Below are positions 38,601 to 39,330 of a stretch of 56,475 bases of DNA, piece after piece (the first letter of the stretch is position 1; every line of letters starts with the position of its first letter). This stretch comes from Gammaproteobacteria bacterium (GTDB lineage: Bacteria > Pseudomonadota > Gammaproteobacteria > JACCXJ01), in contig JACCXJ010000080.1 of NCBI GenBank assembly GCA_013697045.1, positions 1-56,475 of the forward strand, read 5' to 3'. Both the position numbers and the translations under genes were made by a program. The notes below the pieces were generated by a model. The model was given only the letters and a program-made list of their open reading frames with translations, did no database searches and was not told where the DNA came from.

Positions 38601-38853
38601 GGTGGTGAACAAGGTGCTGGAAGGCCGCCCGCACATCGTCGACCTGATCAAGAACGACGCGATCACCCTCATCATCAATACCACGGAGGGCCGGCGGGCC
38701 ATCCAGGACTCGGTCACGATCCGCACCTCGGCCCTGGAGCGCCGGGTCGCCTACACCACGACCATGGCCGGGGCCATGGCGATCCTGGCGGCCATTCCCG
38801 AGCGCGCGCCGGATCGGGTAAACCGACTGCAAGACCTTCACGAGGAGCCGGCG
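35641..38853 (+). CDS. carB: carbamoyl-phosphate synthase large subunit: CarB-homologous 1071 codons of ORF 35641..39330, which has no stop codon before greA
   Basis: [33 protein letters not shown]...; two ATP-grasp halves; MGS-like domain; ends ...[12 protein letters not shown] and runs directly into the greA ATG in frame. Confidence 0.9.
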
Positions 38854-39330
38854 ATGAGCAAGACACCCATGACCCAGAGCGGGGCACAGAAGCTCCGAGA
38901 TGAGCTTCAGCGCCTCAAGAACGACGTCCGTCCGCGTATCATCCGGGCGATCGCCGAGGCGCGCGCACACGGTGATCTCAGCGAGAACGCGGAGTATCAC
39001 GCCGCGCGCGAGCAGCAAGGGTTCGTCGAGGCGCGCATCGCCGACATTGAGGGAAAGCTGTCCCACGCCGAGGTCATCGACATTGCCGCCATCAATGCAC
39101 GCGGCAAGGTGGTGTTCGGGGCCACCGTGGAGATCATGAACGTGGGCACGGAAGAGGTGGCCGTCTACCAGATCGTCGGGGAGGACGAGGCCGACATCAA
39201 GAGCGGCCTGGTCTCGATCCGCTCCCCCATCGCCCGCGCCCTGATCACCAAGGAGGCCGGGGAGATCATCGTGGTCGAGGCGCCGGGCGGGCGTCTGGAA
39301 TACGAGATCATCGACGTGCGTTACGTCTGA
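38854..39330 (+). CDS. greA: transcription elongation factor GreA (in frame with, and not separated by a stop from, carB)
   Basis: GAGGAG Shine-Dalgarno 6 nt before ATG 38854. [57 protein letters not shown]...; 158 aa, colinear with E. coli GreA. Confidence 0.9.

Follow-up and report, generated by a model that had tools for sequence, protein, structure and literature searches.

Comparison with related sequences confirms that an in-frame fusion of carB, coding for the carbamoyl-phosphate synthase large subunit, with greA, coding for a transcript-cleavage factor, is real and heritable within one small lineage of uncultured gammaproteobacteria. The fusion was found in the window, that is the whole 56,475-nt stretch of DNA analysed here (contig JACCXJ010000080.1 of assembly GCA_013697045.1), whose listing of open reading frames (ORFs) contains a single ORF of 1229 codons (35641..39330, forward strand) encoding a complete CarB and then a complete GreA, without a stop between them. 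The best overall explanation, which we hold with considerable confidence, is that a 2-nt loss from the spacer in front of greA created a heritable fusion, that this fusion would yield a joined polypeptide and probably free GreA as well, and that it persists as a tolerated, near-neutral variant.

An earlier note on this DNA had described such a stop-free CarB-GreA ORF, with a CarB part colinear with the Escherichia coli C-terminus and a full-length GreA of 158 aa, and the sequence, NCBIfam and Pfam all bear this description out. More specifically, residues 1-1066 match the CarB equivalog NF003671 with 1714.7 bits against a cutoff of 599 (profile positions 1-1057 of 1058). The Pfam domains follow one another in the order expected for CarB, in agreement with the CarB-then-GreA layout given by NCBIfam, and colinearity of the CarB tail with that of E. 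coli (1BXR) extends through residue 1070 of 1073. With a full-length equivalog match above cutoff, ordered domains and a C-terminal MGS-like domain, the first part of the ORF belongs to the CarB family. Residues 1072-1229 match the GreA equivalog NF001264 over its entire length (profile 1-158 of 158; 240.9 bits, or 247.2 when scored alone, against a cutoff of 180), contain both GreA Pfam matches (PF03449 and PF01272) and align position by position with E. coli GreA (1GRJ, 2-157). The tip/catalytic acidic residues D41 and E44 are conserved in the alignment to 1GRJ. The second part of the ORF thus has the full-length equivalog match and the acidic residues of a GreA, and is predicted to have transcript-cleavage activity.

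The codons across the junction, CTT CAC GAG GAG CCG GCG ATG AGC AAG ACA CCC ATG, are free of stops. Both a GAGGAG Shine-Dalgarno (SD) motif 6 nt before the greA ATG and a TGA in the +1 frame had been pointed out in the earlier note, and both are present (Table 1). Compared with the SD-like motifs of the neighbouring genes, this GAGGAG is the strongest. The TGA being +1 to carB, the window has no NTGA stop/start overlap in the carB frame; its +1-frame ORF ends at 38903. The third-position GC content (GC3) of the whole fused ORF is 0.87, typical for coding sequence of the window. A 626-aa antisense ORF (37186-39066, reverse strand) also spans the junction; it failed the GC3/GC2 coding-composition filter. 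Long spurious ORFs of this kind are usual at 66% GC, and this one is no gene.

Table 1. Features of the carA-carB-greA region in the window.
Feature	Position	Strand	Basis or remark
carA (CPSase small subunit)	34442..35623	+	Pfam CPSase_sm_chain and GATase on the called gene of the identical NCBI contig
CarB part (aa 1-1071)	35641..38853	+	NF003671; Pfam CPSase_L_D1/D2/D3 and MGS; alignment to 1BXR 923-1070
GAGGAG Shine-Dalgarno-like motif	38842..38847	+	Lies at the carB 3' end (His-Glu-Glu codons); shared by all close relatives
6-nt spacer CCGGCG	38848..38853	+	Net loss of 2 nt here; unfused relatives have an 8-nt spacer
GreA part (158 codons + stop)	38854..39330	+	NF001264; colinearity with 1GRJ; dN/dS 0.05
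greA start ATG	38854-38856	+	6 nt after GAGGAG
Former carB stop TGA	38855-38857	+	Now +1 relative to the carB frame
+1-frame TGA	38901..38903	+	carB terminator in the 7-nt-spacer allele of relatives; unused by the window carB
40-nt AT-rich perfect hairpin (GAGGTTGTGAAAAAAACCCTAGGTTTTCTCACAACCTC + TGA)	39331..39370	+	Directly after the greA stop; repeated TGA flanking
rlmE/ftsJ	39399..40019	+	Pfam FtsJ; conserved downstream neighbour
ftsH	40105..42036	+	Pfam FtsH_ext, AAA and Peptidase_M41; conserved downstream neighbour

The fused ORF is preceded by carA, the first gene of a carA-carB-greA unit, for which the NCBI call begins at the equivalent of 34472. Being adjacent, on the same strand and, within 38300-39500, without a promoter-like or terminator-like site, these genes have the layout of an operon and are putatively co-transcribed. 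A carA-(orf)-carB-greA operon of Pseudomonas aeruginosa was reportedly described by Lu, Kwon and Abdelal in 1997. In both P. aeruginosa and Xanthomonas citri, greA directly follows carB and shares its transcript (PMC4619228). The window shares gene order and co-orientation with these operons, and the synteny running on into rlmE and ftsH is present here as well; carB and greA, however, are separate cistrons in the two species and one ORF in the window. Upstream of carA, and divergent from it, lies a gene with a Cpta_toxin domain (PF07254, CptA/YgfX-like; 33752-34195, reverse strand), which overlaps by 4 nt the end of the convergent ORF 32844..33755, corresponding to a gene with an SQS_PSY domain called in L001.

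The alleles of relatives directly show an ancestral arrangement in which carB and greA would have met in a stop/start overlap 8 nt past the SD motif, with CarB (1072 aa) and GreA (158 aa) as two separate proteins. An 8-nt spacer followed by an (A/G)TGA overlap is found in L003, L084, L087, L085, L073, L075 and L076. The first three, which are close relatives, read GAGGAG CCCGGCAC GTGA, and the more distant L085 (87% nucleotide identity) reads GAGGAG TTCGGTCC ATGA; the last three are GTDB representatives, 65-69% identical over the junction query, and have an ATGA overlap. Because close and distant relatives all carry GAGGAG, 8 nt and (A/G)TGA, we take the overlap to be ancestral. An ancestral ATGA-type overlap had been proposed in the earlier note, together with an alignment of the carB 3' and greA 5' ends of relatives as a check, and that alignment finds the overlap, and with it a carB stop, in the 8-nt-spacer relatives. 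The single-nucleotide indel suggested there as the converting change did not hold up: the net change is a loss of 2 nt, from a spacer of 8 nt to one of 6 nt, and a 7-nt allele also exists.

The 6-nt spacer is carried by the window, L001, L002 and L086. The 7-nt spacer is carried by L088 and L089, as CCCGGCG or CACGGCG followed by ATG, and in this allele carB enters greA for 16 codons in the +1 frame, giving a 50-nt overlap and a CarB of 1087 aa. The same states are visible among proteins: the window's protein cluster (at least 90% identity) has 47 members, most of which, among those listed, are 1072 aa long and end in ...HEEPGT, and P0124, P0126 and P0132 share an extended C-terminus (the two complete ones are 1087 aa; P0126 is partial). 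The window spacer CCGGCG equals that of L088 minus one C. By flanking sequence, however, the fused clade nests among the 8-nt GTGA alleles in the tree, and the 7-nt alleles do not group together as nearest neighbours. Since the junction is nearest to the 7-nt allele and the flanks are nearest to the 8-nt GTGA alleles, recombination or recurrent change appears to be involved; the spacer may have gone from 8 through 7 to 6 nt, with recombination, or may have lost 2 nt at once and acquired substitutions. Judged from these alleles, the short SD-to-start spacer varies unusually strongly relative to the flanking sequence.

The earlier note had kept an assembly error as an alternative. Under such a sequencing or assembly artefact, the true genome would have a normal NTGA overlap and a local indel error would mimic a fusion, which is how many database MGS + GreA proteins arise (P0001-P0003, for example, come from ENA assemblies with broken carA/carB); the window, too, derives from assemblies of uncultured organisms. 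We nevertheless consider an artefact highly improbable. The exact 1229-aa protein is also found on contigs of NCBI assemblies GCA_020063725.1 and GCA_020063985.1, which show 2 and 4 SNPs, respectively, relative to the window, 2 SNPs between them and no indels, so that three separate consensus sequences agree. In addition, JGI metagenome contigs were pattern-scanned for any junction of 4-10 nt between the conserved flanks, and two contigs were found. One of them, L086 (Ga0136632_10003016), aligns to the window without gaps over 4483 nt at 96.8% identity and carries a fused junction GAGGAGCCGGCGATG identical to that of the window within an intact 1229-codon ORF. The other, L087 (Ga0136625_1003552), is 95% identical to the window and has an unfused junction. 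The recurrence of the same fused junction in three near-identical assemblies and in a JGI contig diverged by 3% that keeps the 1229-codon ORF rules out the assembly error. Moreover, the junction contains no long homopolymer; what separates it from the unfused allele is a 2-nt difference in length together with substitutions, and not one slip. Over 4.5 kb, the comparison with L086 reveals no further indels, and the neighbouring genes are all intact.

Fused alleles are monophyletic with 99% bootstrap support in a neighbour-joining tree of 2723 gap-free columns. Between the window and L086, carB has a dS of 0.10 and a dN/dS of 0.13, and greA a dS of 0.11 and a dN/dS of 0.05, which is not above that of unfused-allele pairs (0.07-0.09); these estimates come from two diverged fused lineages only and hence from few substitutions (14 in greA). 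Both halves are under purifying selection as strong as in unfused relatives. Monophyly of the fused clade and a dS of about 0.1 point to a single origin and to inheritance through appreciable divergence with both halves constrained.

Outside this clade the fusion was not encountered. The carB stop is present at 80 of the 80 GTDB species-representative loci among the matches listed, a biased sample in that the ranking favoured same-frame loci. A full-length fusion, of about 1200 aa or more and with both parts, is absent from the best 120 matches of the protein search and from the best 150 matches of the junction query in a library of 1.84 billion representatives; the latter result has limited weight because clustering hides fused members, the window's own protein included, under CarB representatives. 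No report of a CarB-GreA fusion was found among the listed papers that mention both carB and greA. The fusion does not form an established family of full-length proteins recurring across lineages. As far as these searches reach, it is rare and lineage-specific, confined to one small subclade and missing from its near relatives.

Database proteins that combine MGS and GreA were considered as a wider fusion family and rejected. Those in the best 120 matches are 205-536 aa long and nearly all form single-member clusters. Three that were traced (P0001, P0002 and P0003) lie in ENA assemblies in which carA/carB is split into 2-6 pieces, and P0001, itself a 92%-identical relative, has a normal GTGA junction plus an extra A upstream. 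Public protein sets contain dozens of such look-alikes; these being frameshift artefacts where checked, each case needs checking at the DNA level. The source of the spurious P0001-P0003 is a set of ENA metagenome assemblies with frequent single-base indels, namely those of L084 (ERZ25039494 contig_13253), L090 (ERZ25039521) and L091 (ERZ25039495), where carA/carB is fragmented and ftsH truncated.

The fusion also has a consequence for annotation. Gene callers had been expected to annotate a long carB and lose greA, and the caller used for the NCBI assemblies did give one 1229-aa product and no separate greA. Annotated in this way as a 1229-aa "carbamoyl-phosphate synthase large subunit", the ORF hides an important housekeeping factor, and the genome would look greA-negative.

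We propose the following course of events. In the ancestor, the carB stop would have overlapped the greA start as (A/G)TGA, 8 nt after GAGGAG, as is usual for translationally coupled genes, here those of the carA-carB-greA operon. Within one sublineage, shortening of the spacer from 8 to 6 nt would have put greA into the carB frame and the TGA out of frame. The overlap typical of ATGA/GTGA coupled genes is thus the ancestral state at this locus, kept by the 8-nt-spacer relatives, whereas in the window, where the TGA is outside the carB frame, there would be no termination-reinitiation and the overlap became a fusion. Ribosomes translating carB would then run on to the greA stop and, as we infer from the fused ORF, produce a CarB-GreA polypeptide of about 135 kDa. 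In an AlphaFold2 model of residues 921-1229, both domains have a pLDDT above 86, with a dip to 54-74 only at ORF residues ~1051-1070, and the pTM is 0.50. Such a dip in the CarB tail just before the junction, together with the low pTM, suggests a flexible tether, and the model supports a predicted arrangement in which GreA folds on its own and is attached through the flexible C-terminal tail of CarB.

Alternatively, ribosomes could be recoded at the junction, shifting to the TGA at 38855-38857 so that a separate CarB would remain the main product. The position of this TGA, one base out of frame right at the junction, is what such a shift would call for. Yet the region 38700-38920 contains no in-frame X XXY YYZ slippery heptamer, and RNA structure at the junction does not exceed that of shuffled controls in any allele (fold z-score of +0.63 for the window). 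Neither a heptamer nor a stimulatory structure of the kind used in programmed ribosomal frameshifting being found at the junction, which is unlike any known shift site, we give recoding very little credence. Promoter-like or terminator-like sites were also absent from 38300-39500.

Read-through of the fused ORF would probably not be the only source of GreA. Internal initiation at the retained SD motif and ATG would in addition give a free 17-kDa GreA. Because GAGGAG and a well-spaced ATG are retained, we think that free GreA is probably made too, and the persistence of the 7-nt allele indicates that greA expression tolerates loss of the stop/start overlap. Internal initiation within an ORF is known to give a second, shorter product from E. 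coli infB, clpB and cheA. The feature shared with these genes is an SD motif and ATG inside a longer ORF; for GreA, the free product is deduced from the motif, its spacing and the existence of the 7-nt allele.

Confinement of the fusion to one subclade argues that it is tolerated rather than adaptive, and a near-neutral variant is most likely, rather than a new function. The opposite reading is an adaptive bifunctional protein, in which tethered GreA would be a functional form, possibly the sole one, and Gre dosage or localisation would be linked to carbamoyl-phosphate synthase and, through it, to the supply of pyrimidines and arginine. We regard this as unlikely, although it draws on several observations: the fusion has lasted while its lineages diverged to a dS of about 0.1, both halves being under strong purifying selection, greA already shares a transcript with carAB in P. 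aeruginosa and X. citri (PMC4619228), C-terminal Gre domains on much larger proteins exist (NCBIfam NF004969 and NF011309), and the AlphaFold2 model predicts a flexible tether. Against it, each half would be expected to stay under purifying selection even if the fusion itself were of no use, and the retained SD motif and ATG, plus the 7-nt allele, argue for GreA being expressed on its own. The distribution is also unfavourable: the fusion is confined to one small subclade, is missing from near relatives and from the 80 species-representative loci among the matches listed, and does not occur in full length in the best 150 matches from 1.84 billion representatives. The narrower proposal, that selection has maintained a bifunctional CarB-GreA in which, by tethering of GreA to the large carbamoyl-phosphate synthase complex, pyrimidine/arginine biosynthetic capacity would set the dosage or availability of the Gre factor, seems to us slightly less probable still. 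If true, it would physically link nucleotide supply to the rescue of arrested RNA polymerase and would help explain the presence of greA in the car operon of many proteobacteria. If the tethered GreA were active, the fusion would also provide a natural test of N-terminal cargo size on a secondary-channel factor.

Members of NF004969 ('transcript cleavage factor/unknown domain fusion protein') and NF011309 (906-aa GreA) likewise carry a Gre domain at the C-terminus of a larger polypeptide, but the N-terminal partner here is CarB and not the extensions of those families, and the window protein falls far below their cutoffs (53.6 against 697 bits for NF004969 and 96.6 against 714 bits for NF011309) and belongs to neither.

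Stop-codon loss between adjacent operon genes is a general route to multidomain or 'Rosetta-stone' proteins. The mechanism here is the same, a small indel removing the upstream stop and joining two complete neighbours. Unlike the usual cases, however, the partners are a metabolic enzyme and a transcript-cleavage factor that are not known to be linked physically or by pathway, and the unfused, out-of-frame-overlap and fused states coexist in one cluster of at least 90% identity. These three states, namely the overlap (8 nt), the 50-nt out-of-frame overlap (7 nt) and the fusion (6 nt), occur in diverged backgrounds within what is a species-level cluster, and make the locus a natural snapshot of a translationally coupled gene pair turning into a fusion gene.

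Directly downstream of the fused ORF, the 40-nt hairpin at 39331-39370 has a predicted folding energy of -28.1 kcal/mol (z = -4.7). L086, the other fused allele, lacks it, as do L003, L087 and L089, which indicates a recent strain-specific insertion. It is possibly a tiny palindromic mobile element, or else a terminator-like hairpin that would mark or stabilise the transcript end. Elsewhere in the window, GAGTTTGTGAAAAAACC at 734-750, shortly after ORF 103..726 ends, looks like the 5' half of this hairpin and may be a second, degenerate copy of the small element. In the greA-rlmE spacer of L088 (~5912-5955) and L084 (~5524-5564), a different AT-rich insert, TTTT(TTT)ACTTTGATATG, lies just before rlmE and lengthens the called rlmE to 207 aa. 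From these sequences, the greA-rlmE spacer appears to be a hotspot for small insertions in this lineage.

Two further observations concern other parts of the window. An Rfam match to group II introns (RF00029; 14701-14773, reverse strand; 46.5 bits against a gathering score of 40) falls inside a stretch of ~13.6-16.1 kb without an ORF of normal coding composition, and this stretch may contain a group II intron, possibly degenerate. The sole tRNA in the window is a tRNA-Ser (anticodon TGA) at 25548-25635 on the reverse strand.
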